The notes under the pieces were generated by a model, which was not told the DNA's origin, searched no databases, and was given only the letters and a program-made list of their open reading frames with translations. Below are positions 6,915 to 61,900 of a DNA stretch of 64,000 nucleotides, one piece after another. Every line of letters starts with the position of its first letter. Position 1 is the stretch's first letter. A program made the translations under genes and the position numbers. The stretch is from Patescibacteria group bacterium (GTDB lineage Bacteria > Patescibacteriota > Minisyncoccia > RBG-13-40-8-A), in the NCBI GenBank assembly GCA_018897295.1, contig JAHILA010000014.1:3390-67389 (forward strand), written 5' to 3'.

Positions 6915-7258
6915 AAAAATTAAAAAATAATAAAAAAGGGGCATCACTTCTTCTTGCGCTGTTGATTATATCAGCGGTTTTAAGTATTGCTTTCGGCATT
7001 TCGGAATTAAGTTTAGGAGAAATAAAGATTTCCCGCGATGCGCCTAAATCATTAATTGCTTATTATGCTGCTGATGCCGGAATTGAATGCCAAATGTTTG
7101 CCGACAGATTAAGCAAACCTAATTGTTCAAGCGCCTGCATAGATGTTAATTCTAAAATTTGTTATAAAATAACTATTTCTGGTGTTAGCCCAAAGAGAAC
7201 AATCAAATCTTCTGGCATATATCAGGATATAATAAGAGCTATCGAATTAACATATTGA
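6911..7258 (+). CDS. PilX-like minor pilin / pilus assembly protein
   Basis: A hydrophobic N-terminus and an AYYAADAGIE motif resemble the PilX_N signature. Confidence 0.55.
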   Translation: MKKLKNNKKGASLLLALLIISAVLSIAFGISELSLGEIKISRDAPKSLIAYYAADAGIECQMFADRLSKPNCSSACIDVNSKICYKITISGVSPKRTIKSSGIYQDIIRAIELTY

Positions 7259-18391: not shown

Positions 18392-18450
18392 TCTACTGAT
18401 TTTGACCTGAGCTATTTATCCTTGTAAGATAGCGTTCAGGAAAACTTGAA

Positions 18451-18480
18451 AAGCCCCGCATTTGCGGGGCTTTTCATTTG
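18451..18480 (+). terminator. Rho-independent terminator
   Basis: GCCCCGC, loop attt, GCGGGGC, then TTTTC. Confidence 0.8.
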
Positions 18481-18507
18481 GGGTTGCTTTGTTTGGTTTG
18501 TAAATTA

Positions 18508-18516
18508 TGTTATAAT
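18508..18516 (+). promoter_or_regulatory. Extended -10 promoter element: TGtTATAAT
   Basis: Read directly. It is about 80 nt upstream of the 18594 ATG. Confidence 0.4.
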
Positions 18517-18527
18517 CTGGATATATG

Positions 18528-18553
18528 CCAGCCTACGGCTGGTCACCCGTAGG
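18528..18553 (+). promoter_or_regulatory. Two mutually exclusive hairpins in the 5' leader of the 18594 gene
   Basis: Hairpin A is CCAGCC-tac-GGCTGG. Hairpin B is CCTACGG-ctggtcac-CCGTAGG. They share nucleotides and are followed by an A-run. Confidence 0.35.
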
Positions 18554-18593
18554 GTGAAAAAAAATAAAATTTAAAATTAAAAAATTTATATTT

Positions 18594-19961: not shown

Positions 19962-19968
19962 CAAGAAA

Positions 19969-21027
19969 ATGGATATTAAGAAAAAAATACTTTTTTTGGT
20001 GACTCAATCCGAGTTTGGCGGAGCCCAGCGCTTTATTTATAATTTGGTAACCAATTTAAATCAGGATAAATATAGTATTGCAGTCGCAGCAGGATTAGAA
20101 GGTGATAATGAAAACGGACTTTTATTTGCTTTAGAGAAAAAAGGGATTGATACAGGACATTTAAGATATCTTAGACGGTCAATTAATCCTTTTTTTGATT
20201 TCTTGGGCGTTATTGAGATTTTAAAATTGATAAAAAAAGAAAAGCCGGATATCTTATTTTTATGCAGTTCCAAAGCAGGATTTTTAGGGAGTTGGGCAGG
20301 AAAAAACAAAATAAAAAAAGTAATTTACAGAATCGGTGGATGGACTTTTAATGACCCTTGGCCAAAATGGAAAAAGAAATTGTATATTTGGATAGAGAAA
20401 ATAAGCGCTGGATGGAAAGATTACATTATCAATAATGCTGAATCAGACAAACAGCAGGCAATAAAAATAGGTATTAAGCCACAAAGGGGAATCTTAACCA
20501 TTTACAATGGAATTGATGCAGATAAACTGAAATTTTTGAATAAAGGAGAAGCAGGAAATTTCCTGCGATTAAATAATTCGGATTTCGTTGTTGGAACTAT
20601 TGCCAATGATTACCCGACTAAGGGATTAAAATACCTAAGAGAAGTCGAAGGAAAATTACAGGATATTAAGCTTGTAATATTGAGCAATATTCCTGACGCG
20701 TATAAATATTTAAAGGCATTTGACATCTTTGTTCTGTCGTCTGTAAAAGAAGGGTTTCCTTGGGTAATTTTAGAAGCAATGTCTGCCGGAGTGCCAATTA
20801 TTGCTACAAAAGTTGGAGCAATACCGGAAATTATCCAAAACAATGAAAATGGCATCTTGATAGAGCCAAAAAGCCCGAAAGCAATTATTGATGCAGTAAA
20901 GTTGTTAATGGATAATAAAGATTTAATGAGGAAATTAGCAATTAATGGCAGAAAAACAGTTATAGAAAAATTTAATCTGGAAAAAATGATTAATAGATAT
21001 GTAGAATTATTCGAATCTACGAATTGA
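19969..21027 (+). CDS. Glycosyltransferase family 4 (GT-B, retaining)
   Basis: The C-terminal EGFPWVILEAMSAGVPIIATKVGAIPEI motif fits the EX7E signature region. Start is set at ATG 19969, just after the upstream stop. The track ORF 19834 is an in-frame upstream extension that overlaps the previous gene. Confidence 0.8.
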   Translation: MDIKKKILFLVTQSEFGGAQRFIYNLVTNLNQDKYSIAVAAGLEGDNENGLLFALEKKGIDTGHLRYLRRSINPFFDFLGVIEILKLIKKEKPDILFLCSSKAGFLGSWAGKNKIKKVIYRIGGWTFNDPWPKWKKKLYIWIEKISAGWKDYIINNAESDKQQAIKIGIKPQRGILTIYNGIDADKLKFLNKGEAGNFLRLNNSDFVVGTIANDYPTKGLKYLREVEGKLQDIKLVILSNIPDAYKYLKAFDIFVLSSVKEGFPWVILEAMSAGVPIIATKVGAIPEIIQNNENGILIEPKSPKAIIDAVKLLMDNKDLMRKLAINGRKTVIEKFNLEKMINRYVELFESTN

Positions 21028-21094
21028 TATGCGAATCTACAAATAATTCGTTGATTCGGATAAATATTCGTATCATTCGGATAATATATTTATG
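21011..21094 (+). repeat. Copy A of a recurrent intergenic cis-element of about 85 bp; forward orientation
   Basis: CGAATCTAC direct repeats with about 20-bp spacing and ATTCGGATA direct repeats with 21-bp spacing. Near-identical copies occur at 21945-22036 (inverted), 26586-26673, 27074-27120 and 28838-28884. Confidence 0.85.
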
Positions 21095-21895
21095 AGGACT
21101 TGTTTTCTCTCAATTGATGTTGAATCCTCCTACGCCCGGACTAAAGTCGGGGCTTCGAAGGACAAGAATCCGTTTGAGTCAGTAGATAAACTTGACTGTA
21201 TTCTTGATATTTTCAGAAAACATAATGTTCCGGCTACCTTGTTTGTGACTGGCGAAGTTTTGGAATATTGCCCTGATTTAGTTAAAAAATGGTCCAAGGA
21301 TTTTGAAATCGGATGCCATAATTATTGGCACGTCCAGCTGGATAAAATTGATTTAGTAGAAAGGGAGAGGCAGGTTAAAAATTTCGTTAATTTATACAAA
21401 GGTATTTTCGGGTTTTCGCCAAAAGGATTCAGGGCGCCGAGAAATGTGATTGATAACCAGCAATTCCCGATTTTAGAAAGATATGATTTTATTTATGATG
21501 CCAGTGTTTTTCCGCGTTACCCCTGGCGTATCGGAGCATATGTCGGATACAGAGGCAGAGCGCCAATTGCGCCGTATTGGCCGAGCAGAAAGAATTACAG
21601 GGAAAAGGGGGACATAAAGATTCTCGAAATTCCCGAAAGTCCGGCTTTGTTCGATGTTCCGTTTGTCGGAACATGGTTAAGGAAACTGGGCGTGAAGTTT
21701 TTTAAATTTATTTTTAAAATAAAAAAGCCGGAATTTATTAGTTTTAGTATGCACTCTTGGGATGGAATTGAGTTTGAAAACGGCAAGAACAGCGGTAAAA
21801 AATATTTAAAACAACTTGATGAAATGCTGGGATTTTTAAAGAAAATAGGGTATAATTTTAAGAGCGGAGAGCAAATTTCATCTGAAATTGCTTGA
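21092..21895 (+). CDS. Polysaccharide deacetylase (carbohydrate esterase family 4, NodB-like)
   Basis: CE4 motifs are present: SIDVE (motif 1 variant), CHNYWH (HxxxH) and FRAPRN (RxPY-like). Confidence 0.65.
   Translation: MRTCFLSIDVESSYARTKVGASKDKNPFESVDKLDCILDIFRKHNVPATLFVTGEVLEYCPDLVKKWSKDFEIGCHNYWHVQLDKIDLVERERQVKNFVNLYKGIFGFSPKGFRAPRNVIDNQQFPILERYDFIYDASVFPRYPWRIGAYVGYRGRAPIAPYWPSRKNYREKGDIKILEIPESPALFDVPFVGTWLRKLGVKFFKFIFKIKKPEFISFSMHSWDGIEFENGKNSGKKYLKQLDEMLGFLKKIGYNFKSGEQISSEIA
21127..21166 (+). repeat. Degenerate in-frame copy of the GC-rich element family inside the CE4 gene
   Basis: cctacgcc...ggggcttcg..gg.caag shares its 5' and 3' signatures with the 62401 copy. Confidence 0.4.
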
Positions 21896-21944
21896 CAGGT
21901 TTTTTTATGCTATAATTAAAAGGTAATAAATAATAATATATTAT

Positions 21945-22036
21945 CCGAATGATACGAATATGTATCCGAATCAACGAATTATTTGTAGATTCGCATATCA
22001 ATTTGTAGATTCGAATAATAAATTCATAAATTTATG
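21945..22036 (-). repeat. Copy B of the recurrent cis-element, reverse complement of copy A. Copies A and B form an inverted repeat of about 80 bp flanking the CE4 gene.
   Basis: The reverse complement matches copy A with about 2 mismatches over about 78 bp. It ends at the ATG of the 22034 gene. Confidence 0.85.
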
Positions 22037-23032
22037 AAAAACAATAAACAATTTCTTAGCGTATTAATAAGCGTTTTAATCTGCGTGTTTGTGTTTGGGG
22101 TAATTGTTTATGCCACAACAACAATCGGAGACAATATTTCCGCAGGCGGGACTTTAAGCGGAACCAATTTTTCAACAAATGATACTTATTACAACACGTT
22201 TGTAGGTACGGGGATAGAAACAACAACCACAGCCAGCTACAATGTATTTGTCGGTTATCGAGCAGGATATTCAAATGATGATGGAGCAGCAGATAGTAAT
22301 ACGGCCGTTGGTTATAATGCCCTTAACCTTAACACCACTGGTGATTCTAATTCGGCAATAGGTTTTTCTGCTCTTGGGAAAAATACTACCGGTATTGCGA
22401 ATTCAGCAATAGGAGTGGGTGCTCTTGGAGGTAATACTATAGGAGGTTATAATACTGCTGTTGGATATATGGCGGGTTATGCTGGAGTTGGAGAATACAA
22501 TAATAATACTCTTGTAGGTTTTAGGGTGGGTTATGGTAGTAGTGGTGTGTTTTCAAATAATACCGTAATGGGTTATGATGCAGGATATAATCTTACAGGA
22601 AATAATAATATTCTTTTTGGATATCAGGCAGGAGACGATTTAACGGCAGGAAGGAATAATATCGTTATTGGATATGATATTGATACTCTTTCTGCCACAG
22701 CAGATAATTATATGAATATTGGAGGATTATTATTTGGAGATTTATCTACTGCCAGCGCCAAGTATCTGGGCATTCTTGATTCTTCGCCCGCTTACACTCT
22801 TTCTGTTGACGGCACTGCATCTGTTTCGGGAACTACATATTTAGGCGATACTTATTTTAGCGGTGTGGTTTCTGCGTCTGATGCGAATGGTATGTTAGTG
22901 GGGGAAGGAATAAGTATCAAGACTGGAATTGCCTCGCCGAGCGGGGCCTGTGGTACAGCTGGAAGTCTTTATCTGGATACAACAGGGGGTATAAGTAGCT
23001 GTGGCACAGATAATAAGTGGGATCCTAAGTAA
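22034..23032 (+). CDS. Secreted repeat protein with Hep_Hag / tail-fibre-like Gly-Asn-Ala repeats; paralogue of the 60837 gene
   Basis: It has a signal peptide and repeats of the form NTAVGYNAL..NTTGDSNSAIGFSALG. The N-terminal about 65 aa and C-terminal about 60 aa are almost identical to the 60837 protein. Confidence 0.7.
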   Translation: MKNNKQFLSVLISVLICVFVFGVIVYATTTIGDNISAGGTLSGTNFSTNDTYYNTFVGTGIETTTTASYNVFVGYRAGYSNDDGAADSNTAVGYNALNLNTTGDSNSAIGFSALGKNTTGIANSAIGVGALGGNTIGGYNTAVGYMAGYAGVGEYNNNTLVGFRVGYGSSGVFSNNTVMGYDAGYNLTGNNNILFGYQAGDDLTAGRNNIVIGYDIDTLSATADNYMNIGGLLFGDLSTASAKYLGILDSSPAYTLSVDGTASVSGTTYLGDTYFSGVVSASDANGMLVGEGISIKTGIASPSGACGTAGSLYLDTTGGISSCGTDNKWDPK

Positions 23033-23075
23033 TTAGGAACTATAAGTTATTAATTTAATTTAATTTGTTTAATTT

Positions 23076-24368
23076 ATGCGCAAAAAAACTTTAACAATAG
23101 TATTTCTCTTGATTTTTACAGTAAGTATAATCAGCTGGCCATTATTGGCTTTAGCTGCTGATGAAGTTAGTTTTAGCGCTGACACTACAATTTTATTAGG
23201 TAATGGTGTATATTTAACCATATTAAATACAGGGGTCTGCGATGCAATCGTCGTTGGCACAAGTACTTTAACCGTTTCTCTTTCTACTAACTCTTCTTTA
23301 GAAATAAGATCATATAGTAAGTACGTATTGAACAATTCCTTGTTTACAACTGATTGCGAGCATAGCCAGAGTTATTCTCGATTAGTACTTACTGGACAAG
23401 CCGTAGCTACGGATTTGGTGATTACTCCCAATACTTCCGCAACCTGTCCTTCTTGGGGAAGTAGTGGCGGTGGAGGTGGCGGGGCTACTACGACTTCTGC
23501 TCAGCCAACTACAACTACTGGTCAAGTAACTGCCACCGCTTCTGGCGGAGGAAAGACAACTTTTATTACCACTGAAACTGCTACGGCCACAGTTGATTTA
23601 CCGGCAAGCGCGGTTACTTCATCTACAAATATAGCAATATCAATAGAAACCAAGGCAACGGTTACGTCTAGTAAACCAGTGCCATCAGGACAAAATGTGG
23701 TGGGCGGATATATCTATAATTTTACTGCTACTGCTGGGAGTACTGCAATAACTACATTTTCCAAAGACATTACACTGACCTTTACTTATACCGATAGCCA
23801 GGTAACAGGGTTAAATGAAGATACATTAAAGGTTTATTATTGGGACGGAAGTAAATGGGCAGCTTTAACTGGAACACTGAATAAAACGAATAACACGATT
23901 ACTGTTTTAACAAATCATTTTACCTATTTCGCAATATTGGGAGATTCGGGTACAACATCAACAACAATGGCTAAACCAGAAGATTATGGATTAAAAGAAG
24001 GAGATTTAATCAGGGCTCAAGGGGATTTTGACATCTTTATTATCAGCCAGTATGGCTATAAAAGATTATTCCTTAATCCGACTATCTTTAATATGTACGG
24101 CCATCTTAATGGAGGATGGAATGCAGTAAAAACCGTATCTACGGCAACCAGAGATGCGTTTATTACTTCTACTCATTATCGCTTTGTAGATGAAGATAAA
24201 GTATATCATCTGGAAGTAACGGGCGAGGATACTGGTACTTTGCATTGGCTGAATATGACTGGAGAGAATTTTTTGGCTCAAGGAGGAAAATCTGAGGATA
24301 TCTTCACTATTAATAAATCAGAATTGGACTGGTATTCTAAAGGCGCTGATATAACTTCCTTAAAATAA
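23076..24368 (+). CDS. Secreted surface protein with a Thr/Gly-rich linker and the shared module at its C-terminus
   Basis: It has a signal peptide, a low-complexity GGGGGATTTSAQPTTTTGQ linker and a C-terminal 125 aa region about 75 % identical to the 59011 protein C-terminus. Confidence 0.7.
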   Translation: MRKKTLTIVFLLIFTVSIISWPLLALAADEVSFSADTTILLGNGVYLTILNTGVCDAIVVGTSTLTVSLSTNSSLEIRSYSKYVLNNSLFTTDCEHSQSYSRLVLTGQAVATDLVITPNTSATCPSWGSSGGGGGGATTTSAQPTTTTGQVTATASGGGKTTFITTETATATVDLPASAVTSSTNIAISIETKATVTSSKPVPSGQNVVGGYIYNFTATAGSTAITTFSKDITLTFTYTDSQVTGLNEDTLKVYYWDGSKWAALTGTLNKTNNTITVLTNHFTYFAILGDSGTTSTTMAKPEDYGLKEGDLIRAQGDFDIFIISQYGYKRLFLNPTIFNMYGHLNGGWNAVKTVSTATRDAFITSTHYRFVDEDKVYHLEVTGEDTGTLHWLNMTGENFLAQGGKSEDIFTINKSELDWYSKGADITSLK

Positions 24369-24428
24369 CATTGATTTGGACCTTCGCTTCTTCCTTGTAG
24401 GAGTTGAGAAGGAATAAAGAGAAAAATA

Positions 24429-24456
24429 TCCCGACATGGGTCGGGACATTTTTCAT
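24429..24456 (+). terminator. Rho-independent terminator
   Basis: TCCCGAC, loop atgg, GTCGGGA, then CATTTTTC. Confidence 0.8.
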
Positions 24457-24507
24457 TGTTTTGGGGTTGTTTTTTTGCTGTGAAAATGCTATTCTTAATA
24501 CAAATAT

Positions 24508-25527
24508 ATGGGTAATTTCCAAGAGCTAAATAAGCCCGAATTTAAGGCATTATTGGATAAAACGCTTTTTAAGACGTTTTTTCATTCTATAGAATGGCAT
24601 GAATTTTTGGAAAAAGAATTTAAGTGGCTAAAATTTGAATATTATTTGTATAAGTATGATGAGGCAATATTGGTTTTTGGGCGGATAAAAACCTGCCTGT
24701 CAACAGGCATGGAAAAGTTAATTTCTTTGCCTTTTTGTGAATATGGCGGACCACTACCACTAAAGGGAAGTATTATGTGGGAAGAATTTACAAGAGATAT
24801 TTTTAAAGAATTTGGTGATAATATTAAAATTAAAATTCATCCGCGGATTTCAGAAATTTTAGGTAATCCGCGCTCTTCAAGTAATTTATCAAGCTATTGG
24901 TTATATCTGGAAAATAAATCAGAACAGGAAATCTGGGAATCTTTACGTAAAACTTTGAGGCAGGAAATCAGAAATGCCAAGGAGCAAGGTTTGGAAATCA
25001 GGGCTTATAAAAACCCAAAAGAACTGAAGAAATTCTACGATTTATATGCGGCTAATTTGAGACAAAAGAAGACCATTCCTTATCCATGGCCCCTGATTCA
25101 ATTTCTATGTCAAAACCCGTCTAGCGAGCTGTTATTGGCCTCTTATAGGGGTAAAATCGTGGGGGGTGCCTTGTTTCTGAAATATAGCTCGCCTCGCGGC
25201 GAAGCGGGTGGATTTATCCATTATTTCTTGAGCGCCTCGGATTACAAATACCATAATTTCGGCATAGCGCACCTTATTTTATGGGAAAAGATAAAGGGTC
25301 TAATTGGCAAAAATATTACTCTTGATTTAGGCGCTTCGCCACAAGGTTCGGATTTGGAAATTTTCAAGCGCGGGTGGGGAGGAACAGAGTGGCCAATTTA
25401 TCAGATTGGAATAAAAAGAACGGAAGAATCTTTCCGTTCATCAAAAATAATCAGATTTATTTGGGGATTATTGCCGAATTTTATAATTAAAAAACTTAGC
25501 CCATACTTGATAAAATACCGTCTGTAA
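24508..25527 (+). CDS. FemAB-family / GNAT (Acetyltransf_6-like) aminoacyl- or acyl-transferase
   Basis: About 340 aa with a FemAB-like tandem-GNAT architecture (IRAYKNPKELKKFYDLYAANLRQKKTIPYPWPLIQFL). This call rests on pattern recognition only. Confidence 0.4.
   Translation: MGNFQELNKPEFKALLDKTLFKTFFHSIEWHEFLEKEFKWLKFEYYLYKYDEAILVFGRIKTCLSTGMEKLISLPFCEYGGPLPLKGSIMWEEFTRDIFKEFGDNIKIKIHPRISEILGNPRSSSNLSSYWLYLENKSEQEIWESLRKTLRQEIRNAKEQGLEIRAYKNPKELKKFYDLYAANLRQKKTIPYPWPLIQFLCQNPSSELLLASYRGKIVGGALFLKYSSPRGEAGGFIHYFLSASDYKYHNFGIAHLILWEKIKGLIGKNITLDLGASPQGSDLEIFKRGWGGTEWPIYQIGIKRTEESFRSSKIIRFIWGLLPNFIIKKLSPYLIKYRL
25187..25210 (+). repeat. Degenerate GC-rich element copy inside the FemAB-like gene
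   Basis: gcctcgcggcgaagcgggtg compares with gcctcgccggcaggcgggtg in the 31489 copy. Confidence 0.4.
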
Positions 25528-26578
25528 TTTTATTAATATCTTTTTCAGTAAACCAGTTTTGAAGAGGGAAATTAATAATGCGTTTTGCAGTTTCGGCAGT
25601 ATTAGGGAATTCGTTAAATAATGGTTTTTGCCAGATACGCGAACAGAAAATCCCTTTCTTTCTTAATTTATTGAATAATTCGTCGCGGTTTGTATTTTTA
25701 GGCACAAGCGCAGATAAATAGGTAAAAGTATTATTTTCAGATTCCTGCTTGTCTGCCGATGAGGCAGGCACCTCAAAACCTATTTCTGTTAATTTCTTTT
25801 GAAAGTATTTTGCCAAGTTGATTCGTTTATTGAGATTGGTTTCAAGATTATCCAGATAGTAATTTACAATTTTTAAACATCCTTTTGATGCCTTTCTTGT
25901 CTCGTCGTAGCCCCGTAGATGCAGGGGCGAAGGCGGATTAATTCTCCTAAACAATTCCGACAATCCAGCCAGCATTGGAAACAACCTCAAAAATTTTACA
26001 ATATTAAATAATCTTGATTTATATTTTGGCAATTCTAATTCGATTTGATTTTTACAAATCAGCATTCCTCCGTTTATAACAGGAAACAATTTAGCAAAGC
26101 TGAAAAATAAAGCATCCCCGAATTTTTCAGGGGACATCGGTGGCGCAATATGCGCGCAATCCTCAATGATTTTTAAATTATATTTTTTGGCGATTCCCAG
26201 GATTCTATCCATTTCAATTGGCAGTCCGTAAGTGTGGCAGATTAAAATAGATTTAGTCAGTGGAGTAATCTTTGACTCAATATCAATAGAATCAGCATGA
26301 AAAGTTTTGAGATTCGTATCCAGATAAACCGGCTTAATATTATATTTTTCTAAAATCGGTTTTAAAATATCACAGATATAGGCAGGCATAATCATTTCAG
26401 AGTTTTCTAGATTCAGCTGTTGTATTGCTAGCCGGAAAGCAGACCTGCCAGAGTTAGTGAAAATAATTTGGTAATCAGGAAAAATCTTAGCTAATTTATT
26501 TTTTAAATCAGCTTCAGAAAATTTTCTGAAGAATACTCGTAAGGGGAATTTTTTAAATTGTGGATGCGCAAAATACAT
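25496..26578 (-). CDS. DegT/DnrJ/EryC1/StrS-family PLP-dependent sugar aminotransferase
   Basis: About 360 aa with a fold-type I layout. A putative PLP lysine sits in FSFAKLFP. It shows the typical DegT N-terminal substrate region and lies in a glycan locus. Confidence 0.6.
   Translation of the reverse strand: MYFAHPQFKKFPLRVFFRKFSEADLKNKLAKIFPDYQIIFTNSGRSAFRLAIQQLNLENSEMIMPAYICDILKPILEKYNIKPVYLDTNLKTFHADSIDIESKITPLTKSILICHTYGLPIEMDRILGIAKKYNLKIIEDCAHIAPPMSPEKFGDALFFSFAKLFPVINGGMLICKNQIELELPKYKSRLFNIVKFLRLFPMLAGLSELFRRINPPSPLHLRGYDETRKASKGCLKIVNYYLDNLETNLNKRINLAKYFQKKLTEIGFEVPASSADKQESENNTFTYLSALVPKNTNRDELFNKLRKKGIFCSRIWQKPLFNEFPNTAETAKRIINFPLQNWFTEKDINKITDGILSSMG
25901..25937 (-). repeat. 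Degenerate GC-rich element copy inside the DegT gene
   Basis: The reverse complement, ccgccttcgcccctgcatctacgggg, shares the 11-mer ccgccttcgcc and cctgc with the 31489 copy. Confidence 0.4.
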
Positions 26579-26585
26579 AATTTTA

Positions 26586-26673
26586 TTATCCGAATCTACA
26601 AATTAATATGCGAATCTACAAATAATTCGTTGATTCGGATACATATTCGTATCATTCGAATAATATATTTATG
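26586..26673 (+). repeat. Copy C of the recurrent cis-element (forward), in a divergent promoter region
   Basis: It is near-identical to copy A and lies between the divergent DegT (-) and GxxExxY (+) genes. Confidence 0.85.
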
Positions 26674-27069
26674 GAAAAAGTTTATAAAGATGTTTTATAT
26701 CCCGAATTATCATATAAAGTTTGTGGTTTATGTTTCAGAATTCATAATGAATTGGGGCGATTTTATAATGAATTGCAATATGCTGATGCGCTCGAGAACT
26801 TATTTAAAATAGAAAAAGTTGAATATAAAAGAGAGATACCATTGCCGCCGTCATTCAATGGTGAAAACGAAAGAAGAAACATTCCAGATTTTATAATACA
26901 AGAAACGATTATTTTAGACTTAAAGGCTAAACGCATTATTACTAAAGACGATTATTATCAAATGAAGAGATATTTGAACGCTTACAATAAAGAACTTGGA
27001 TTAATTGTAAATTTCAGAGAATATTATTTAAGTCCCAAAAGAGTTTTAAGTAAAAATAATTTAAATTAA
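26671..27069 (+). CDS. GxxExxY-family protein
   Basis: 132 aa. The N-terminal LSYKVCGLCFRIHNELGRFYNELQYADAL matches the family signature. This family is often found in exopolysaccharide loci. Confidence 0.6.
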   Translation: MEKVYKDVLYPELSYKVCGLCFRIHNELGRFYNELQYADALENLFKIEKVEYKREIPLPPSFNGENERRNIPDFIIQETIILDLKAKRIITKDDYYQMKRYLNAYNKELGLIVNFREYYLSPKRVLSKNNLN

Positions 27070-27073
27070 TAAG

Positions 27074-27120
27074 CATTCGTTGATTCGGATACATATTCGT
27101 ATCATTCGGATAATACCATG
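27074..27120 (+). repeat. Copy D (right half only) of the recurrent cis-element
   Basis: cattcgttgattcggatacatattcgtatcattcggataata lies immediately upstream of the 27118 ATG. Confidence 0.8.
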
Positions 27121-28278
27121 CGTATTTTGATGCCAATTTTACATTATCCTCCAATAATCGGCGGCTTTGAGATTTTCTCTCAGAATATTGCCGAGAGAAT
27201 CGGCAAAACCGATAATGTTTTTGTTATTACCAGCAGGGTTGCGAATGCGCCCAGCAAAGAAATAAACAACAATTTAAGAATACTCAGAACCTCGCCCTGG
27301 TCGCTGAAAAACCTGTCTTATAGCAAGCCATGGTTTATTGTTGGGGCAATGATATGGATTTTTTTTAAGTCAATTAAATTGATTAAAAAAGAGAAAATAG
27401 AGCTAATCCATGCTCAAGGGTTTTTGAGCGGAATTATCAGTTTGATATTAAAAAAACTGACAAAAGTCCCATATTTACTTACTATTCAATCGGCTGATTT
27501 TAGTGTATACCATCCACGCTTGAATATCAATATCATTAAGGCGATTTATAAAAAGATGGAAAAGGCGGTTTTTAAAAATGCTGATTATTGCCACGCAGTA
27601 AGCAATTATTTGGCAGACCATATAAGGCAATACTATGTGCAGAAAGTTGAGATGATCCCGAATGGAGTTAATTGGGAAAGATTTAGGCCGGATGTTGATA
27701 AATTAAAAACCAGAAAAGAACTTGGGTTTGATGCGGAAAATTTAATTGTTTGCGTTTCGCGGCTGGAGCATAAGAATGGAACGCACGATTTAATTGAATC
27801 GGTAAAATATCTTCAGGATTTTGATTTTAAACTAATGATTTGCGGCAGTGGTTCAGAAAAAGAAAAATTAGAGAAAATGATAAAGGATTTTAACTTGGAA
27901 GACCGAGTTTTCCTTTTGGGGGATATTCTCCATAGTGAATTACCCAAATATGTTGCTTGCGCGGATATTTTTGTCAGGCCGTCTTTAGCAGAGGGATTCG
28001 GGATAGTTTTTTTGGAGGCAATGGCATGCAGTGTTGCGGTTATCGGAACTCCTGTGGGCGGGATACCCGATTTTTTAAAAGATAGAGAAACGGGTCTTTT
28101 CTGTGAGCCGGGAAATCCGAAGGATATTGCCGAAAAGATAAAAAAACTTTTAGCAGACAAAGAATTATATCAAAAACTGACAGTAAATGGTTTGAAAATG
28201 GTTAGGGAAATATATAACTGGGATCAGGTAGTGAGGAAATTAAAAGAGTTATATACTAAAACAATAAATAATAATTAA
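27118..28278 (+). CDS. Glycosyltransferase family 4
   Basis: An AEGFGIVFLEAMACSVAVIGTPVGGIPDFL motif is present. Confidence 0.8.
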   Translation: MRILMPILHYPPIIGGFEIFSQNIAERIGKTDNVFVITSRVANAPSKEINNNLRILRTSPWSLKNLSYSKPWFIVGAMIWIFFKSIKLIKKEKIELIHAQGFLSGIISLILKKLTKVPYLLTIQSADFSVYHPRLNINIIKAIYKKMEKAVFKNADYCHAVSNYLADHIRQYYVQKVEMIPNGVNWERFRPDVDKLKTRKELGFDAENLIVCVSRLEHKNGTHDLIESVKYLQDFDFKLMICGSGSEKEKLEKMIKDFNLEDRVFLLGDILHSELPKYVACADIFVRPSLAEGFGIVFLEAMACSVAVIGTPVGGIPDFLKDRETGLFCEPGNPKDIAEKIKKLLADKELYQKLTVNGLKMVREIYNWDQVVRKLKELYTKTINNN

Positions 28279-28283
28279 GAAGT

Positions 28284-28316
28284 AACCCGCCGCAAGCGCG
28301 AAGCGCAAGCAGGCGG
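28284..28316 (+). repeat. Intergenic GC-rich hairpin element related to the in-frame GC-rich elements
   Basis: cccgccgcaagcgcgaagcgcaagcaggcgggcaag. A CCCGCC...GGCGGG stem encloses GCGC-GAA-GCGC, and the 3' end ggcgggcaag is shared with the 31489 and 62401 copies. Confidence 0.5.
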
Positions 28317-28325
28317 GCAAGAAAT

Positions 28326-28862
28326 ATGAAAAAAGTTATTCCATTTTTAGCAATAGCTTTTGTGGTCATCGGAGCAGCGCTGAGATTTGCTCCGCATTTT
28401 CCGAATTTTGCGCCAATTGCGGCAATGGCATTATTCGGCGGAGTTTATCTTAATAAAAAATATGCCTTGATCGTTCCGATAGTTGCGATATTTGTCAGTG
28501 ATTTGTTTATTGGTTTTTACGATGCCAAATTAATGGCAGGGGTATACTTAAGTTTTATTTTGGTTGGTTTAATCGGATTATTTATTAAGAAACATAAAAA
28601 TATAGGCACAATAATCGGCGGAACTGTTTTAGGTTCTGTTTTGTTTTTTCTGATTACCAATTTTGCTGTTTGGGCGTTCTATTCGTGGTATCCGCACACT
28701 TTAAATGGCTTAAGTCAGTGTTTTACAATGGCATTGCCATTTTTCAGAGGTACGTTAATTGGTGATTTGTTCTATGTCGCAATTCTATTTGGAGTTTATG
28801 AAGTGGTTATAGCTTCGGTTAGAAAAAAACATTTATTAGTAGATTCGAATATTAATTTGTAG
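28326..28862 (+). CDS. Integral membrane protein with 5-6 TM helices; possibly a small-substrate transporter component
   Basis: It is polytopic and hydrophobic with a FAPHFPNFAPIAAMALFGG N-terminus. Its function is not recognised. Confidence 0.3.
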   Translation: MKKVIPFLAIAFVVIGAALRFAPHFPNFAPIAAMALFGGVYLNKKYALIVPIVAIFVSDLFIGFYDAKLMAGVYLSFILVGLIGLFIKKHKNIGTIIGGTVLGSVLFFLITNFAVWAFYSWYPHTLNGLSQCFTMALPFFRGTLIGDLFYVAILFGVYEVVIASVRKKHLLVDSNINL

Positions 28863-28884
28863 ATTCGAATAATATATTTATATG
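28838..28884 (-). repeat. Copy E of the recurrent cis-element (left module inverted, fused to the conserved AATAATATATTTAT end)
   Basis: gtagattcgaatattaatttgtagattcgaataatatatttat lies upstream of the 28882 ATG. Confidence 0.75.
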
Positions 28885-29940
28885 AAAATCGTAATTGCAT
28901 CAGGAATATACCCGCCGGATATTGGCGGACCAGCAACATACTCGCAAACTACTGCGCGGGAATTTACTAAACAAGGAATTAATGTCTCTTTGATTTGTTA
29001 TTCGGATAAAAAACAAGAAGATAATGAAAATTTTAAAATTGTCAGAATTTTAAGAAAAAATAAATTATTCAGATATTTATTGTATTTTTGGAACCTTTTG
29101 AAATTAGCCAGAAATTGCGATGTAATTTATGCCCAAGGTCCATTAGCAGCTGGTTTGCCAACAATGTGGGTGAGTAAAATTTTGAGAAAGAAATTTGTGA
29201 TTAAAGTTGTTGGTGATTATGCCTGGGAACAAGGGGTAAATCAATTTGGCGTTAAAGAATTAATTGAAGAATTCCAAAATAAAAAATATAATTCCAGAAT
29301 TGAAAGAATAAGAAGAATTCAGAAAAAAGTTTGTAAAAGCGCGGACAAAATTATTGTCCCGAGCGAGTTTTTAAAGAAAATAGTAAAAGGCTGGGGGATT
29401 AATGAGAATAAAATTAAGGTTATTTATAATGCTTTTTCGGGAATTGAAAATTGGAAATCGGAAATTGAAAATTTGAATTTAGATGGCGATATAATTATTT
29501 CAGCTGGTAGGCCAGAGCCATGGAAAGGATTTGATACTCTAGATGAGATAATGTCGGATTTGCTAAAAGAAAATCCGAAATTCAAATTGGTTATAGCGAC
29601 TAAATTATCTCATAATGAACTAATGGCGTATTTTAAGACAAGTATGATTTTCGTACTGAATTCCGGGTATGAAGGATTTTCGCATATCCTTTTGGAAGCA
29701 ATGGCTTGCGAATTGCCTGTGATTACAACCAATGTTTGTGGGAATCCCGAAATCGTCAGAAACAGTTATAATGGATTATTGGTTGAGTATAATAATAAAG
29801 AGCAAATAAAAAATGCTATTTTAAGATTATGGAAAGATGAAAATTTGCGAAGAAAATTTATTGAGAACGGAAAAAAGACATTAGAGAAATTTAAATTAGA
29901 AATAATACTGGAAGAAACATTAAACGTTTTAAGACCATGA
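28882..29940 (+). CDS. Glycosyltransferase family 4
   Basis: A YEGFSHILLEAMACELPVITTNVCGNPEIV motif is present. Confidence 0.8.
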   Translation: MKIVIASGIYPPDIGGPATYSQTTAREFTKQGINVSLICYSDKKQEDNENFKIVRILRKNKLFRYLLYFWNLLKLARNCDVIYAQGPLAAGLPTMWVSKILRKKFVIKVVGDYAWEQGVNQFGVKELIEEFQNKKYNSRIERIRRIQKKVCKSADKIIVPSEFLKKIVKGWGINENKIKVIYNAFSGIENWKSEIENLNLDGDIIISAGRPEPWKGFDTLDEIMSDLLKENPKFKLVIATKLSHNELMAYFKTSMIFVLNSGYEGFSHILLEAMACELPVITTNVCGNPEIVRNSYNGLLVEYNNKEQIKNAILRLWKDENLRRKFIENGKKTLEKFKLEIILEETLNVLRP

Positions 29941-31373
29941 TAGTTTTAATCCAAATTAATTATTCCAAAGACCATTCCGAAGTTACCTTGCCTTTGGGAA
30001 TTTTATCTGTGGGCAGCGCTCTGAAAAAAGCAGGGTTTGAAGTGAAACTAATTAATATTAACGAGAAAATCATTGATAAGGCAGCTGATAAAATTGTCGG
30101 GATGCATCCGGAATTTGTCGGTATTTCGGTAATGACAGGAATGCAAACCAAACACAGCGCGGAATTAAGTAAAAAAATAAAAGAAAAAAATTCACAGCTT
30201 CCGATTACCTGGGGCGGGATCCATCCGTCTCTTCTGCCTGAACAATGCCTAGAAGAAGATTATATTGATTATGTTGTTATTGGCGAAGGAGAAGTAACAA
30301 TCATAGAATTTGCTAATAAATTGAAAAATGGTGAAAGCTTTGATAATATAGCGGGTCTGGGGCACAAAAAAAACAAGAAAATAGTAATCAACCAGCCACG
30401 GGAATTCATAAAAAATCTGGATGATTACAGGTTGGATTTCAGTTTGGTTGATATTGAAAAATATCTTTTCCGGTTGAAAGGCGCAACGCGGACAATAGCT
30501 TATAAAGCAAGCCGTGGATGCACTTTTAATTGCGCTTTTTGTTATAACAGGGCATTTAATAAAAACAGATGGAGGGTTTGGTCAGTAAATTCAGTTGTTG
30601 AAGACGTCAATTTTTTAAAAAAAGAATACGGAGTTGATGCGATAAAATTTTATGATGATAATTTTTTTATTGATAGTCAAAGAGCATTGGAAATATTGGA
30701 AAAAATTGACATACCAGCGCATACAGAAATCAGAATTGATATGATTACTGATGATTTGGCGAAAAGATTAAAAGAATTAAAAGTCAGCGAACTGCTTATT
30801 GGCATAGAATCGGGCAGCAACAGGATGCTGAAATTAATCAATAAAGGTTATACAGTTGATAAAATAAAAGAAGGTGTAGAGATATTGGCGAAGCATGATC
30901 TTTACGTCACTTATTCTACAATAGTCGGATTACCCACAGAAACAAAAGAAGAATTTAATAAAACTCTTGATTTGATGTCTTGGGTTCACAAAATACATGC
31001 TAGGGCAGGATTTACGCTTGGGGCATATTTGCCCTATCCTGGCTCATTGATGTATAAATTTGCAATAGAACAAGGATTTAATCCGCCGATTAAAACAGAA
31101 GACTGGGGAAGCATCGATAGATTTAGAAAAGATTTTTTATCTCCTTGGGTTGATGCCAAAAAAGTGTGGAGAGTCAGGGAGTATTTCAAATTTTTCAGTT
31201 ATAAAATCGGATTTCTAAACAAATGGGTTGAATATAGAATCAGGAAAAAGTTTTTTAAATTCGCCATTGATATACCAGTTATTGAATATTTTGCCGGGTT
31301 GGCAATCGAGGAAAAAGGGTTAATCGGAAAATTTTTAAGAAAAATCCATTCTTTTGTTAAAAAATTCAAGTAA
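29937..31373 (+). CDS. B12-binding-domain radical SAM enzyme (class B)
   Basis: An N-terminal B12-binding Rossmann region (GISVMTG) is followed by CTFNCAFC (CxxxCxxC). It has an ATGA overlap with the upstream GT. Confidence 0.8.
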   Translation: MIVLIQINYSKDHSEVTLPLGILSVGSALKKAGFEVKLININEKIIDKAADKIVGMHPEFVGISVMTGMQTKHSAELSKKIKEKNSQLPITWGGIHPSLLPEQCLEEDYIDYVVIGEGEVTIIEFANKLKNGESFDNIAGLGHKKNKKIVINQPREFIKNLDDYRLDFSLVDIEKYLFRLKGATRTIAYKASRGCTFNCAFCYNRAFNKNRWRVWSVNSVVEDVNFLKKEYGVDAIKFYDDNFFIDSQRALEILEKIDIPAHTEIRIDMITDDLAKRLKELKVSELLIGIESGSNRMLKLINKGYTVDKIKEGVEILAKHDLYVTYSTIVGLPTETKEEFNKTLDLMSWVHKIHARAGFTLGAYLPYPGSLMYKFAIEQGFNPPIKTEDWGSIDRFRKDFLSPWVDAKKVWRVREYFKFFSYKIGFLNKWVEYRIRKKFFKFAIDIPVIEYFAGLAIEEKGLIGKFLRKIHSFVKKFK

Positions 31374-31374
31374 T

Positions 31375-32535
31375 ATGAAACTTTTAATCATTTCAGGCGA
31401 TACAGCCTTGGCTCAGGGCAAAAAAGGGCCATTTTATTATGTGTTGGAAGAATTGTCTAAATATTGGGAGAGGATTGATATTATCTGTCCCCGCCTTCGC
31501 CAACCTGCCTCGCCGGCAGGCGGGTGCTTCGGCGGGCAAGCAAAACCATGTGTTCAAAAATTTTTTAATAACGTATATGTGCATAGTTCTAATTTGCCTT
31601 TAATCCTTCAGCCGTGGTTTATTTTTAAAAAAGGAGCAGAGATTTATAAAGAGCAGAAATTTGATTTGTTCACAATTCATAGCTATCCTCCTTTTTATAA
31701 TGATATTGGCGGATTGTGGCTTTACAATAAAATAAAAACCCCTTACTTTTTAGAAGTAATGCATATCACTGGTTATCCCAAAGCAGGGAATTTTAAGGAG
31801 TGGTTTTATAAAATTTTAACTAAATATTTTATAAATTTTTTTTCAAAGAGAGCTAAAGCAATTAGAGTGATTAATCAGATACAAACACCAGAATTTTTGA
31901 AAAAAGCAGGGGTTGATGAGAAAAAGATAAAAATTGCACCGGCATTTTATATCGATTTTGAAGTATTTAAACCCAATGCCGCAGAAAAAAAATATGACTT
32001 GGTTTTTTCCGGTCGATTAGCGAAGAATAAAGGTATATTTTTATTACTGAAAGCAGTGAGAAGTCTCAAATCACAGATTCCAAACATCAAGCTTGTAATT
32101 ATTGGAAGTGGGCCGTTGGAGAAAAGGATCAAGAAATATATTATAAAGAATAAATTAGAAAATAATGTGGAATTTGTCGGTTGGTTGCCGACCATAAATG
32201 ATTTGGCGAGAATTTATAATCAATCAAAAATTTTAGTTATGCCGTCATTTAACGAAGGTGGACCGAGAGTAACCTTAGAAGCAATGGCTTGTAAAGTGCC
32301 GGTTATTACAAGCAGAGTCGGGGTGATGCTGGATATAATTAAGCATGGTGAAAATGGAATATTTATCAAATGGAATGCCGAGGATATTGCTGAGAAGATA
32401 ATTTTATTATTAAAGGACGACAATCTAAGGCAGAAGATAGCTGAAAACGGCTGCCAAACAATCCAACGATTTGAAAGAAAAAAAGTAATTGAAAATTATG
32501 CAAAAATATATCAAGCTTTGCTACGTTCTGCCTGA
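31375..32535 (+). CDS. Glycosyltransferase family 4 carrying an in-frame GC-rich element insertion
   Basis: A NEGGPRVTLEAMACKVPVITSRVGVMLDI motif is present. Start is set at ATG 31375 immediately after the upstream stop; the track 31354 start overlaps the upstream gene. Confidence 0.75.
   Translation: MKLLIISGDTALAQGKKGPFYYVLEELSKYWERIDIICPRLRQPASPAGGCFGGQAKPCVQKFFNNVYVHSSNLPLILQPWFIFKKGAEIYKEQKFDLFTIHSYPPFYNDIGGLWLYNKIKTPYFLEVMHITGYPKAGNFKEWFYKILTKYFINFFSKRAKAIRVINQIQTPEFLKKAGVDEKKIKIAPAFYIDFEVFKPNAAEKKYDLVFSGRLAKNKGIFLLLKAVRSLKSQIPNIKLVIIGSGPLEKRIKKYIIKNKLENNVEFVGWLPTINDLARIYNQSKILVMPSFNEGGPRVTLEAMACKVPVITSRVGVMLDIIKHGENGIFIKWNAEDIAEKIILLLKDDNLRQKIAENGCQTIQRFERKKVIENYAKIYQALLRSA
31489..31548 (+). 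repeat. GC-rich palindromic element of about 57 bp, in-frame within the GT4 gene. It is translated as [20 protein letters not shown].
   Basis: ccccgccttcgccaacctgcctcgccggcaggcgggtgcttcggcgggcaagc is about 93 % identical to 62401-62457. Confidence 0.85.
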
Positions 32536-33610
32536 TTATAATTCCAAAACAGACAGCCATTTTTTCCATCTGTATGAATTTTTGGAAAAGGCGTCTAAAA
32601 AACTGGACATATTTTTAATCGTAGAAAGAAGTAGTAGCAACAAAGAAGATATCGGGAGTGTTATGCCGGATATAAAATTTATTTATATCCAAAAATTTAA
32701 GTTTATCCCTTTTCGCTTTATTGAGAGTTTTATTGCTGTTTTAATCGCCAGAATTAAAGGATATAAAAACTTTTATACCCATTATTGTTATATCGGCGGA
32801 ACCAACGCCGCAATTATATCCAGGGTTTTCGGCGGGAAGTCGTATTATTGGAATTGTGCCATGAATTGGTTGTTTAAGAAAAAAGATTCTTCAAAAATAG
32901 GATATGAATTGTGCTTGAAATGGTCTCATTATCTGGTAACCGGCAGCGCGGGGATGAAGAAAGGATATATTGAACATTATCATCTGAGTCCGGAAAGAGT
33001 TAAAGTAATGCCTAATTGGATAAACCTGGAAAGATTTAAACCGGGAAACTTCCAGCCCAAGGCTGGTCCGCCTCGGGCGGAAAAGACTTTATTATTTATT
33101 CATTGGCTTTCAAAAAGGAAGGGCGCGGATATGATTGTGCCGATAGCAAAACATTTATCCCAAATACTAAATACAAAATACAAAATATTGGTTGCAGGCA
33201 ATGGTCCGTATGGAGATGATTTATTGAAAGAAATAGAGGAAAACAAATTAAAAAAAATTATCGAAGTTTTGGGAGCCATTCCTAATGAAAATATAATTAA
33301 GTATTACGAAAAGACGGATATATTTATCATGCCGTCTATGGAAGAAGGATTTCCGAGAGTGTTGTTGGAAGCAATGGCAATGGGCGTTCCTTATATTGCT
33401 TCCGATATCGGAGCAGTCAGGGAAATTTCTTCGGAAATCGCTCAAAGATTTCTAGTCAGGTCAGGAGACGCCGAAATGTTTGCCCATAAAATAGAAAACT
33501 TAATATCGGACGAAAGGGTATACGAAGATTTCAGAAAAGAAGAATTGCAAAAAATCAAGGAATATTCAATAGATAAAGTGATTGATATATTTGTAAAATT
33601 ATTTAAATGA
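32489..33610 (+). CDS. Glycosyltransferase family 4
   Basis: An EEGFPRVLLEAMAMGVPYIASDIGAVREI motif is present. The start is either 32489 or 32498, and the gene overlaps the upstream gene. Confidence 0.75.
   Translation: MKIMQKYIKLCYVLPDYNSKTDSHFFHLYEFLEKASKKLDIFLIVERSSSNKEDIGSVMPDIKFIYIQKFKFIPFRFIESFIAVLIARIKGYKNFYTHYCYIGGTNAAIISRVFGGKSYYWNCAMNWLFKKKDSSKIGYELCLKWSHYLVTGSAGMKKGYIEHYHLSPERVKVMPNWINLERFKPGNFQPKAGPPRAEKTLLFIHWLSKRKGADMIVPIAKHLSQILNTKYKILVAGNGPYGDDLLKEIEENKLKKIIEVLGAIPNENIIKYYEKTDIFIMPSMEEGFPRVLLEAMAMGVPYIASDIGAVREISSEIAQRFLVRSGDAEMFAHKIENLISDERVYEDFRKEELQKIKEYSIDKVIDIFVKLFK
33051..33081 (+). repeat. Possible degenerate GC-rich element copy in the GT4 gene
   Basis: cccaaggctggtccgcctcgggcgg compares with ccaacctgcctcgccggcaggcggg. 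Confidence 0.3.
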
Positions 33611-35031
33611 AATTAATTCTTACAACTAGTCCTAGAGCAGAAGGCGACTTGGAAAGAAAGGGTCTGCCGTTTTTGGGCATTGGTTATATTGCCGGCTATA
33701 TGGAAAAATTCAGCCATCATCAGGTTGAGATTTTTGATGCTCATACTTATGGTTTGACCGCGTCTGAAGCAGCTGGGAAAATACTGGCTAAAAATCCGGA
33801 TGTTGTTGGTATACATTCTATTACCGACAACAGATTTAAGGCGATTGCTTTGGCGAAGGGACTAAAAAAGGAAAATAAAAATGTAATTGTTTTAATGGGT
33901 GGCCCGCATTTTTCTTTGACAGCGAAAAATGCTTTGGAATTGGTTCCAGAAATAGATTATATTATCAGAGGCGAGGGTGAAAAAGCAATTGTTCAATTAT
34001 TAGATGTTTTGGAAAATAAAGGGGACATTTCAAAAGTTTCAGGATTGGCTTATAGAGATAAAAATGGCCAGATTATAGAAAAACCATTAACTGATTTGAT
34101 AATGAACTTAGATGAGCTTCCAATGCCCGCTTGGCACCTATTTGACCTTAAAGAGTATAACAAGCCCATAGATGGCACAAACGTTCGTTCTGTAGGCGTT
34201 TTAAGCGCCAGGGGATGCCCAAATGTATGCGTCTACTGCGCTAACGCCAGATCAGTACTGAGATTAAGAAGTCCGAAAAATTTCATTGACGAGGTTGAGT
34301 ATTTGCATAAGACATACGGCTATCACGGTTTTGATTTTTGGGACGACACTTTAACCATGGTGAAAAGCCACGTTACGGCTGTTTGTGAAGAAATTATCAA
34401 AAGGAAACTGGATATAATTTGGTATGCCCGGGCAAGGGTTAATACCGTAGACAAAGAATTACTGCAATTAATGGGAAAAGCAGGATGCATCAGAATCAGT
34501 TTTGGTGTTGAATCTGGGAGTCCGAGAATCATAAAAATTATTAAGAAAAACATCACCGTTGAACAAGTGTTGAATGCCGTGCGATGGTCATCGGAAGTCG
34601 GCATGGTAGTGGTTACCAATTTTATGGTTAATTTGCCGGAAGAAACATTAGATGATTTAAAACAAACAATAGGCCTGATGAAAGAATTGAGCAAGATTAA
34701 AAATTCTTATCCCGCTTACGGCTTCACGGTTATTTATCCAGGCACGGAGCTGGAATTGATGGCAAAAGAACGAGGATTGATGCCGAAAGATTTTTCCTGG
34801 AACAGCCCGTACCAGTCGCCAAAATATAAAGTTGCCGGAACCGATCCATCTTTGTTTTATATGGAATGGCCTGGTGCTGAATTGGAGAAAATAAAAGCAA
34901 TTATGGTAAGAGGCTTGGGAATTAAGGGCAATGTTTTTAAAAAAGGATTTAATAAGCTAAGAAAAATAAAATCATTCGGCGAATTGAAAGAATTGGTTAA
35001 AACGGGAATTGATTATTTTTTTAAATTTTAA
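33607..35031 (+). CDS. B12-binding-domain radical SAM enzyme
   Basis: It has a B12-binding N-domain and CPNVCVYC. It is paralogous to the 29937, 36784, 39804, 46357 and 47746 genes. Confidence 0.8.
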   Translation: MKLILTTSPRAEGDLERKGLPFLGIGYIAGYMEKFSHHQVEIFDAHTYGLTASEAAGKILAKNPDVVGIHSITDNRFKAIALAKGLKKENKNVIVLMGGPHFSLTAKNALELVPEIDYIIRGEGEKAIVQLLDVLENKGDISKVSGLAYRDKNGQIIEKPLTDLIMNLDELPMPAWHLFDLKEYNKPIDGTNVRSVGVLSARGCPNVCVYCANARSVLRLRSPKNFIDEVEYLHKTYGYHGFDFWDDTLTMVKSHVTAVCEEIIKRKLDIIWYARARVNTVDKELLQLMGKAGCIRISFGVESGSPRIIKIIKKNITVEQVLNAVRWSSEVGMVVVTNFMVNLPEETLDDLKQTIGLMKELSKIKNSYPAYGFTVIYPGTELELMAKERGLMPKDFSWNSPYQSPKYKVAGTDPSLFYMEWPGAELEKIKAIMVRGLGIKGNVFKKGFNKLRKIKSFGELKELVKTGIDYFFKF

Positions 35032-60813: not shown

Positions 60814-60836
60814 AATAATTAATAAATAAAAAATTT

Positions 60837-61898: not shown

Positions 61899-61900
61899 TT

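Follow-up and report, generated by a model that had tools for sequence, protein, structure and literature searches.

GC-rich islands scattered through a 64-kb stretch of a Patescibacteria genome (contig JAHILA010000014.1; hereafter the window, whose positions are used for all coordinates without a handle) are best read as members of a guild of insertion cassettes, very small, palindromic and rich in GC, that are copied into new sites at the DNA level, an explanation to which we assign a probability of roughly 70%. The window has a GC content of 35.5%, and its 19–35 kb region is a glycan-biosynthesis cluster in which Pfam identified a CE4 deacetylase, a FemAB-like gene, a DegT aminotransferase and three GT4 genes. 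An earlier note on this DNA had pointed to five islands here (sites 1 to 5), which it took for degenerate copies of a 57-bp element. All five strings that it quoted are present where it placed them, its gene labels CE4, FemAB, DegT and GT4 were confirmed by Pfam, and every host open reading frame (ORF) is open as it had said. The unit that it chose was wrong, since the 57-bp element is itself a composite of a 21-bp core and a frame.

An older frame with a 21-bp core inside it makes up the 57-bp element

The composite consists of a 21-bp core, CCTGCCTCGCCGGCAGGCGGG, at the apex of an older palindromic frame of ~35 nt, CCCGCC-TWC-GCC-AA^GGC-TTC-GGCGGG-CAAG, in which ^ marks the bond where the core is inserted. 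The window holds two copies of the 57-bp element, E1 and E2, which are 95% identical and are translated in different reading frames. E1 lies on the plus strand at 31486–31541 inside a GT4 gene (GT4a, ATG at 31375), with its core at 31504–31524, and E2 lies on the plus strand at 62398–62453 inside SecA, with the frame at 62398–62415 and 62437–62453 and the core at 62416–62436.

L and P numbers are our handles for sequences outside the window. The closest SecA ortholog (P0002/L121, 88% amino acid identity) reads DPAFAK-ASAGKPE and lacks the core residues; its DNA in L121, GCCAA|GGCTTCGG, is missing precisely the 21 nt of the core. Between the bases of this empty site (...GCCAA|GGCTTCGGCGGGCAAG...) the window has exactly the 21-bp core, and in this pair of filled and empty sites the boundaries of the core are unambiguous and target bases are neither duplicated nor lost. 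Orthologs of GT4a form a series of four states, in which most carry neither frame nor core, L147 (CGTCAA|GGCTTCGGCGGGCAAG) and P0282 carry the frame only, the window and its closest relative L148 carry the frame with a forward core, and L146 and P0245 (the latter judged by its peptide) carry the frame with the core in exact reverse complement, inserted at the same bond. No target duplication or loss was seen at the filled and empty GT4a sites. P0282 and P0002 lie on one contig, so that a single genome has both frames empty where the window has both filled. An in-situ flip of the hairpin loop was rejected as the origin of the reverse core in L146, because only the 21-mer is inverted while the adjacent AA and AG remain on the same side. 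The core is thus found inserted in either orientation at one bond with the target neither duplicated nor lost, and, being one sequence that is translated in three frames and from either strand, it is an element of the DNA and not a protein motif.

A covariance model of the frame (R1) was built from six empty-frame copies, none of them from the window (L121, L136, L125, L069, L086 and L059), and was run on both strands of the window (128 kb) with filters off; its E-values are rough, and the ranking is the informative part. The top five matches were E2 (38.9 bits, E 1e-6), E1 (37.5 bits, E 2e-6), site 1, site 4 and site 3. R1 also picked up further frame copies in relatives, and frame copies occur outside the host lineage as well (L069, L086, L059). 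In the FemAB genes of relatives, frame copies were seen at 4313–4349 of L125, 2034–2070 of L136 and 1793–1862 of L142, one of which holds a 33-nt nested insert.

The core is found in many phyla

Exact matches to the 21-bp core number at least 120 in GTDB species representatives and come from many lineages of the candidate phyla radiation, Omnitrophota, Bacteroidota, Gammaproteobacteria, Acidobacteriota, Elusimicrobia, Planctomycetes, a Bathyarchaeota metagenome-assembled genome (MAG) and others; the carriers among Bacteroidota include cultured Aureibaculum and Agriterribacter. The flanks of the core differ from match to match and are unrelated. A hand estimate from base composition gives a chance expectation well below 1 for low-GC genomes and of a few matches for high-GC genomes, so that matches such as the one in Sorangium may be due to chance.

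Statistics on flanks and ORFs were taken on the 129 matches listed, to which the following counts refer. The core lies within long ORFs in 60 of the 129, where it is read as PASPAGG (24), PPAGEAG (13), LPRRQAG (6), RLPARQ (4), PACRRGR (3) or CLAGRR (2); translations into Pro, Ala, Ser and Gly are favoured across genomes, and the Arg-rich frames come to 15 in total. From this bias in frame usage we infer translation and selection on the peptide. A pyrimidine follows directly on the 3' side of the core in 116 of 129 matches, and flanking stems of at least 6 bp were observed 9 times where ~2 were expected, an excess of about fourfold that concerns a minority of the copies. In UvrB of a gammaproteobacterial MAG (L069), the core makes an exact 7-residue insertion relative to solved UvrB (LIDFFP-aspaggl-KDYLMFIDESH). 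It is also in frame in Era, TsaD and CopA-like ATPases, the 7-residue indels being shown for SecA and UvrB. The TrmH-like protein of an Aureibaculum isolate (L014) was set aside, the region being too variable against PDB homologs to call an insertion. In Acidobacteriota (L031, L042, L103, L106, L109, L039) and in L004, L090 and L120, the core forms the apex of larger, repeated palindromic elements of ~100 nt with conserved arms, e.g. ...CCCGGCACTCCGCTGCG-core-CTCCGTGCCGGGCTAATTACAATCG..., of which L103 has two copies.

Sites 1, 3 and 4 belong to the frame family

Similarity of the islands to the 57-bp element was tested by shuffling the query with dinucleotides preserved (N = 500) and scoring it against the real islands; the p-values are optimistic because the sites had been picked by eye. 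The resemblance claimed in the earlier note went beyond composition at four of the five sites and failed at site 5 (p 0.9). When the 57-bp element was ranked against the window by plain Smith-Waterman alignment, the noted sites did not stand out from background, since spanning the variable inner part takes a long and costly gap; the ranking did bring out the copies in pilin leaders described below.

Syntenic loci of relatives were recovered by a metagenome scan anchored on DegT and compared with the five sites in codon alignments. Sites 1, 3 and 4 are members of the frame family that share only the frame with the 57-bp element and have different inner hairpins. Site 1 (21121–21169, plus strand) lies in the CE4 gene and reads TCCTCC-TAC-GCC-[CGGACTAAAGTCGG]-GGC-TTC-GAAGGA-CAAG, with a decayed outer stem and an inner hairpin different from the core. 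It ranked third in the R1 scan (19.1 bits, E 0.028), and in the shuffle test (p ~0.01) its similarity lay in the outer frame. The peptide of the window, SSYARTKVGASKDK, stands against KK-EGQQDQ in nine orthologs, a net gain of 7 residues relative to the nearest, and the island is missing from 9 of 10 CE4 orthologs. At the same position L132 has another island of the frame type, TCCGCC-TCC-[GCTCGC TCGGA GCGAGC]-TTC-GGCGGA-CAAG.

Site 3 (25893–25941, minus strand) lies in DegT and reads TCCGCC-TTC-GCC-[CCTGCATCTACGG]-GGC-TAC-GACGAG-ACAAG, with a decayed 3' stem (R1 17.7 bits, E 0.056); its match is to the outer part of the 57-bp element (shuffle p ~0.002). The INPPSPLHLRGYDE of the window recurs in diverged form in L125, L128 and P0123/124/130/131, and it is not found in the closest relative, the window having a net 21 nt more than L148. 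Site 4 (28282–28324, plus strand) is intergenic and reads CCCGCC-gcaa-GCGC-gaa-GCGC-aagca-GGCGGG-CAAG, combining the outer stem and CAAG tail of the frame with a different inner hairpin (R1 18.7 bits, E 0.034). Its shuffle p was 0.17 with the full element as query and 0.012 with the frame, and its DNA folds at -14.4 kcal/mol (z -4.1). Site 4 is at the left edge of a 626-nt block (28266–28891) that is absent from the closest relative. The block also carries a DUF6580 gene (28326–28862) and an AT-rich repeat; this gene had no match in any syntenic relative recovered by the DegT-anchored scan.

Site 2 and DegT carry cassettes of the core type, and two pilin leaders carry core-like palindromes

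Site 2 (25188–25209, no strand assigned), in the FemAB-like gene, is an independent 21-nt cassette of the core type, CTCGCCTCGCGGCGAAGCGGG (SPRGEAG). It is a clean 7-codon indel found only in the window and the closest relative, L124, among 17 orthologs. Aligned to the core without gaps, it agrees at 16/21 positions on the minus strand (15/21 on the plus strand). In the shuffle test (p ~0.02) its match was to the central, core part of the 57-bp element, and the R1 frame model with filters off did not recover it. In the window, 6 stretches agree with the core at 15/21 positions or more, compared to a mean of 0.16 for shuffled cores; the six include the two exact cores and both strands of site 2. 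A decayed core that the earlier note had missed lies in DegT at 25748–25768 on the minus strand (CCTGCCTCATCGGCAGACAAG, PASSADK). This, too, is a clean indel of 21 nt, which only the window and L124 have among 20 DegT orthologs, and it matches the core at 16/21 positions with all five differences running from G/C to A/T.

Two further palindromes lie in prepilin leaders on the plus strand, one at 6427–6447 (MKK-AMPAGRQ-GFTLIE, 15/21 ungapped to the core) and the other at 5369–5389 (MKRFK-GYAYRQA-GFTLIE, 13/21 ungapped); both gave shuffle p <=0.002, and the N_methyl motif was confirmed in the genes with these leaders. The type IV pilin-like genes concerned (5352–5392 and 6417–6456) have unusually long leaders, whose seven apparently extra residues come from a core-related GC palindrome, GCCTGCCGGCAGGCAGG. 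In the FemAB genes of L129 and L144, we observed a double hairpin, TCCGCCAAAGGCGGA + TCCGCCTCGGGCGGA (SAKGGSASG).

Site 5 is a separate double-hairpin element

Site 5 (33051–33085, plus strand), in a linker of a GT4 gene (GT4b), had been described as a weaker copy of the 57-bp element. It is a separate, intact double-hairpin element, CCAGCC-CAA-GGCTGG + TCCGCC-TCG-GGCGGA + AAAG (QPKAGPPRAEK), without specific likeness to the 57-bp element (R1 11.4 bits, E 1.5). Its DNA (fold z -4.6) shows 100% conservation in distant relatives. A 31-nt sequence (CCAGCCCAAGGCTGGTCCGCCTCGGGCGGAA) is identical in the window, L129, L132 and L134/135, whose proteins are only ~66% identical. The element is absent from L127, L130 and L140/141, and in the closest relative, L148, its position is occupied by a different cassette. 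The same double hairpin occurs at other loci, at 9086 of L127, at 15281 of L129 and twice in L059, and in L129 a reverse core (19/21) is nested in the loop of the first site-5 hairpin. Another double hairpin of this architecture lies in intergenic DNA at 18528–18556 on the plus strand, where CCAGCC-TAC-GGCTGG-T-CACCC-GTA-GGGTG is followed by an A-run (fold z -4.4).

In L148, a 105-nt in-frame insertion at 2332–2450, in the GT4 ortholog of 27118–28278, consists of ATCAGCGTNTATC repeats and the hairpins TCCCGAC-AAG-TCGGGA and TCGCC-GAA-GGCGGA, and the cassette at the site-5 position (7095–7145) is of the same family.

Taken over all five sites, the claim that the islands are lineage-specific indels and not conserved protein motifs held, sites 1 and 2 being in-frame indels and sites 3 and 5 patchy in their distribution. 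The view that they are a proliferating family and not chance composition was borne out by the shuffle tests, the covariance ranking and the occurrence in different frames and on both strands. Matches no more frequent than in shuffled sequence, or islands conserved at the protein level in distant orthologs, had been named in advance as outcomes that would speak against it, and neither was observed. The description of the family as old and decaying suits sites 1 and 3 and the DegT cassette at 25748–25768, and does not suit sites 2 and 5.

Other repeats and inserts in the window

A PD-(D/E)XK gene (PDDEXK_3, 26671–27069) with AT-rich repeats on both sides (26579–27117) is identical to L148 over 539/539 nt, against an identity of only 88.8% for the adjoining DegT. 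Most syntenic relatives lack the gene, and L146 carries it twice. The region looks like a recently moved gene cassette. The repeats belong to an AT-rich family of ~90 nt with CGAATCTAC and ATTCGGATAA sub-repeats, found at 21006–21094, 21935–22033 (inverted), 26571–26673, 27035–27123 and 28822–28882. They bracket CE4 (as a 98% inverted pair) and PDDEXK_3, one closes the DUF6580 block, and copies end exactly at the ATG of the next downstream gene; they may be ends or promoters of mobile gene cassettes.

AT-rich tandem oligomers (TTTCCAA and similar; NFQFPIS, KSKIQN) were observed at 4999–5040 and 29442–29483, in L058 and L097, and in SecA and GT4a orthologs. These inserts are in frame, of low complexity and in the same variable loops as the GC-rich cassettes, and in L058 and L097 they directly flank the core. 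Diverged paralogous gene segments at 22014–24267 and 60416–61917 (70–82% nucleotide identity) lie beside the glycan cluster and upstream of SecA. Lastly, two long, perfect, bidirectional terminator-like hairpins are intergenic at 18447–18476 and 24421–24454, and the stem of the latter, TCCCGAC/GTCGGGA, also occurs in cassettes.

Discussion

The basic units of the islands are 15–21 nt long in multiples of three, with 15-nt hairpins as a second size class beside 21 nt, and all six frames of the core are free of stop codons, so that a cassette inserted into a tolerant loop keeps the host ORF open and adds ~5–7 residues. Cassettes often sit at the apex of an existing hairpin, which gives rise to nested composites, the 57-bp element among them. 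Between genomes the core and the double hairpin of site 5 keep an identical sequence, and other copies (sites 1, 3 and 25748–25768) drift from G/C to A/T toward the AT-rich background. We interpret the cassettes as selfish, or at least copy-pasted, palindromic units, which would persist in a gene-dense genome owing to their multiple-of-three length and lack of stop codons and would be translated and filtered by selection on the peptide. As a working guess, movement could proceed through a single-stranded DNA hairpin intermediate with an enzyme supplied in trans, the candidates being a host or mobile-element enzyme of the HUH/Y1 kind (IS200/IS605 or RAYT) or a structure-specific nuclease.

Three alternatives were weighed. 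The one that survives best, although we consider it unlikely, is that no dedicated element or enzyme exists and that GC-rich hairpins exchange the islands by template switching during replication or by short-patch gene conversion; a nascent strand that has stalled would copy the loop of another hairpin with a similar stem and then return. Cassettes nested at hairpin apices (SecA, GT4a, site 5 of L129), the absence of target duplication, the shared composite stems (CCGCC/GGCGG), which could give microhomology, and the fact that no transposase was found all fit such a process. It accounts poorly for the many core copies that have no flanking hairpin or microhomology, such as UvrB in L069, for a 21-mer boundary that is exact and constant in unrelated contexts and for both orientations of the core at one bond; moreover, for copies to agree letter by letter across phyla, a donor template would have to come in from outside, and template switching supplies none.

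A second alternative, which we regard as quite improbable, is that the hairpins are selected functional signals, either mRNA structures that pause or stabilise or protein-binding sites, which are kept and not moved. The identity of the site-5 element at 31/31 positions despite the divergence of the flanking coding sequence (~66% amino acid identity), the invariance of the core across phyla and the strong folds at sites 4 and 5 and at 18528 (z about -4) would agree with it, whereas the same cassette appears in genes unrelated to one another, in every frame and on either strand, in variable loops as well as between genes, is absent from closest relatives and persists in decayed copies. The sites do not resemble terminators: sites 1, 3 and 5 and E1 were not flagged in a scan of 18000–34000 for intrinsic terminators (E2 is outside that range), they lie within ORFs and are followed by A-rich sequence and not by a T-run, and the only weak matches in the scan were the minus strand of site 2 and part of site 4. 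No Rfam family corresponds to them, as no match reached the gathering score anywhere in the window and a permissive scan of E2 returned only chance hairpins of <=15 bits. Finally, that the islands are chance runs of Pro, Ala, Gly and Arg linker codons in an AT-rich genome, or assembly artefacts, can be dismissed as close to negligible, for although the likeness of site 5 to the 57-bp element is not specific and some GC-rich islands are ordinary conserved coding motifs (25365, KRGWGG, and 22921, shared with a paralog, both rejected as cassettes), the covariance ranking, the shuffle tests and the exact 21-nt indels at the DNA level contradict it for sites 1–4, and the same insertions recur in independent samples and assemblies (the window with L124 and L148; four lineages for site 5).

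Several observations weigh against insertion cassettes as the explanation. First, no conserved 5' target motif was found among the 129 core copies listed, the 3' pyrimidine being the only bias, and most of these copies are not at hairpin apices; E1 and E2 themselves fold no better than shuffles (z ~ -0.8). Second, no mobilising gene was identified within the 64 kb of genome, and the PDDEXK_3 nuclease was ruled out as a local partner, no homolog of the PD-(D/E)XK gene being found in the 120 core-bearing GTDB stretches (861 kb). Third, phages and plasmids, considered as vehicles for the identity across phyla, yielded 1 exact core match in IMG/VR and 0 in PLSDB. Fourth, selection on the sequence, and not recent movement, may be why site 5 is 100% identical in four diverged lineages. 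Lastly, gain is not separable from precise loss without a species tree.

Among known systems, cassettes of this kind belong with small palindromic repeats and are not members of the repetitive extragenic palindromic (REP) sequences, the Rickettsia palindromic elements (RPEs), the miniature inverted-repeat transposable elements (MITEs) or the derivatives of the insertion sequences (IS) IS200/IS605; the REP head and extragenic location, the RPE size, the MITE duplication and the fixed IS200/IS605 target all fail. RPEs are alike in being in-frame palindromes in the coding genes of an AT-rich, gene-dense genome, with the ORF kept and the insert translated, and the indels in SecA, GT4a, FemAB, DegT and CE4 are multiples of three that leave ORFs open. 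RPEs are ~100–150 bp long and known only from Rickettsia and relatives; the cassettes are set apart by size and description, with units of 15–21 nt, nested composites of at most 57 and a core that crosses phyla. REPs and their BIME and REPIN arrangements, mobilised by RAYT, are short GC-rich imperfect palindromes of ~20–40 nt, multi-copy and mosaic, near-identical while active and without target duplication, and the core, the frame and the 15-nt hairpins do recur in the window and its relatives. REPs are known as extragenic elements with a conserved GTAG-type head, each specific to a species or clade. In contrast, most window cassettes, including both composites, are inside open ORFs (sites 4 and 18528 are intergenic) and cassettes are shared across phyla; a GT(A/G)G head is absent from the core and the frame on either strand and from the flank logos, and no RAYT gene turned up among those window ORFs that were scanned.

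Mobile GC clusters and palindromic elements of fungal mitochondria offer another parallel, as GC-rich hairpin islands in an AT-rich genome with in-frame coding insertions and nested or degenerate copies. They are organellar, usually 30–60 bp, often with short target duplications, and restricted to lineages. Palindrome-associated transposable elements (PATEs) derived from IS200/IS605, and MITEs, are similar in being non-autonomous and hairpin-bearing, the IS200/IS605 type without target duplication. Such elements are at least 100 bp long, with ends from the parent IS and a fixed 4–5 nt target 5' of the insertion. The cassettes differ from PATEs in their 21-bp unit, in having no conserved 5' flank among the copies listed and in occurring in both orientations at the GT4a bond, although the target there is itself quasi-palindromic, and from MITEs in that terminal repeats with target duplication are absent at the filled and empty pairs of SecA and GT4a. 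We found no description of the cassettes in the full-text literature by concept, DNA substring or encoded peptides, which does not prove that there is none.

A broader reading is more tentative, and we hold it at somewhat less than even odds: the core would represent a pan-prokaryotic class of codon-length, stop-free hairpin cassettes, to which the frame and the 15-nt hairpins would probably also belong, integrated precisely in trans in either orientation, without target duplication and often at hairpin tips, and shared horizontally among more than 10 phyla while adding 5–7 residues to housekeeping proteins. If this is true, few known DNA units that move or are copied would be as small or as widespread as the 21-bp sequence, which would repeatedly give rise to small insertions in the conserved proteins of bacterial phyla. 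The states of empty frame, forward core, reverse core and decayed core provide a series for measuring the mechanism, the target rules and the rate of decay. For annotation, such inserts inflate the apparent divergence of proteins and seed spurious 'motifs', and they are relevant to structure prediction for the proteins of candidate phyla. They also raise the question of how unrelated environmental bacteria come to share identical short sequences.

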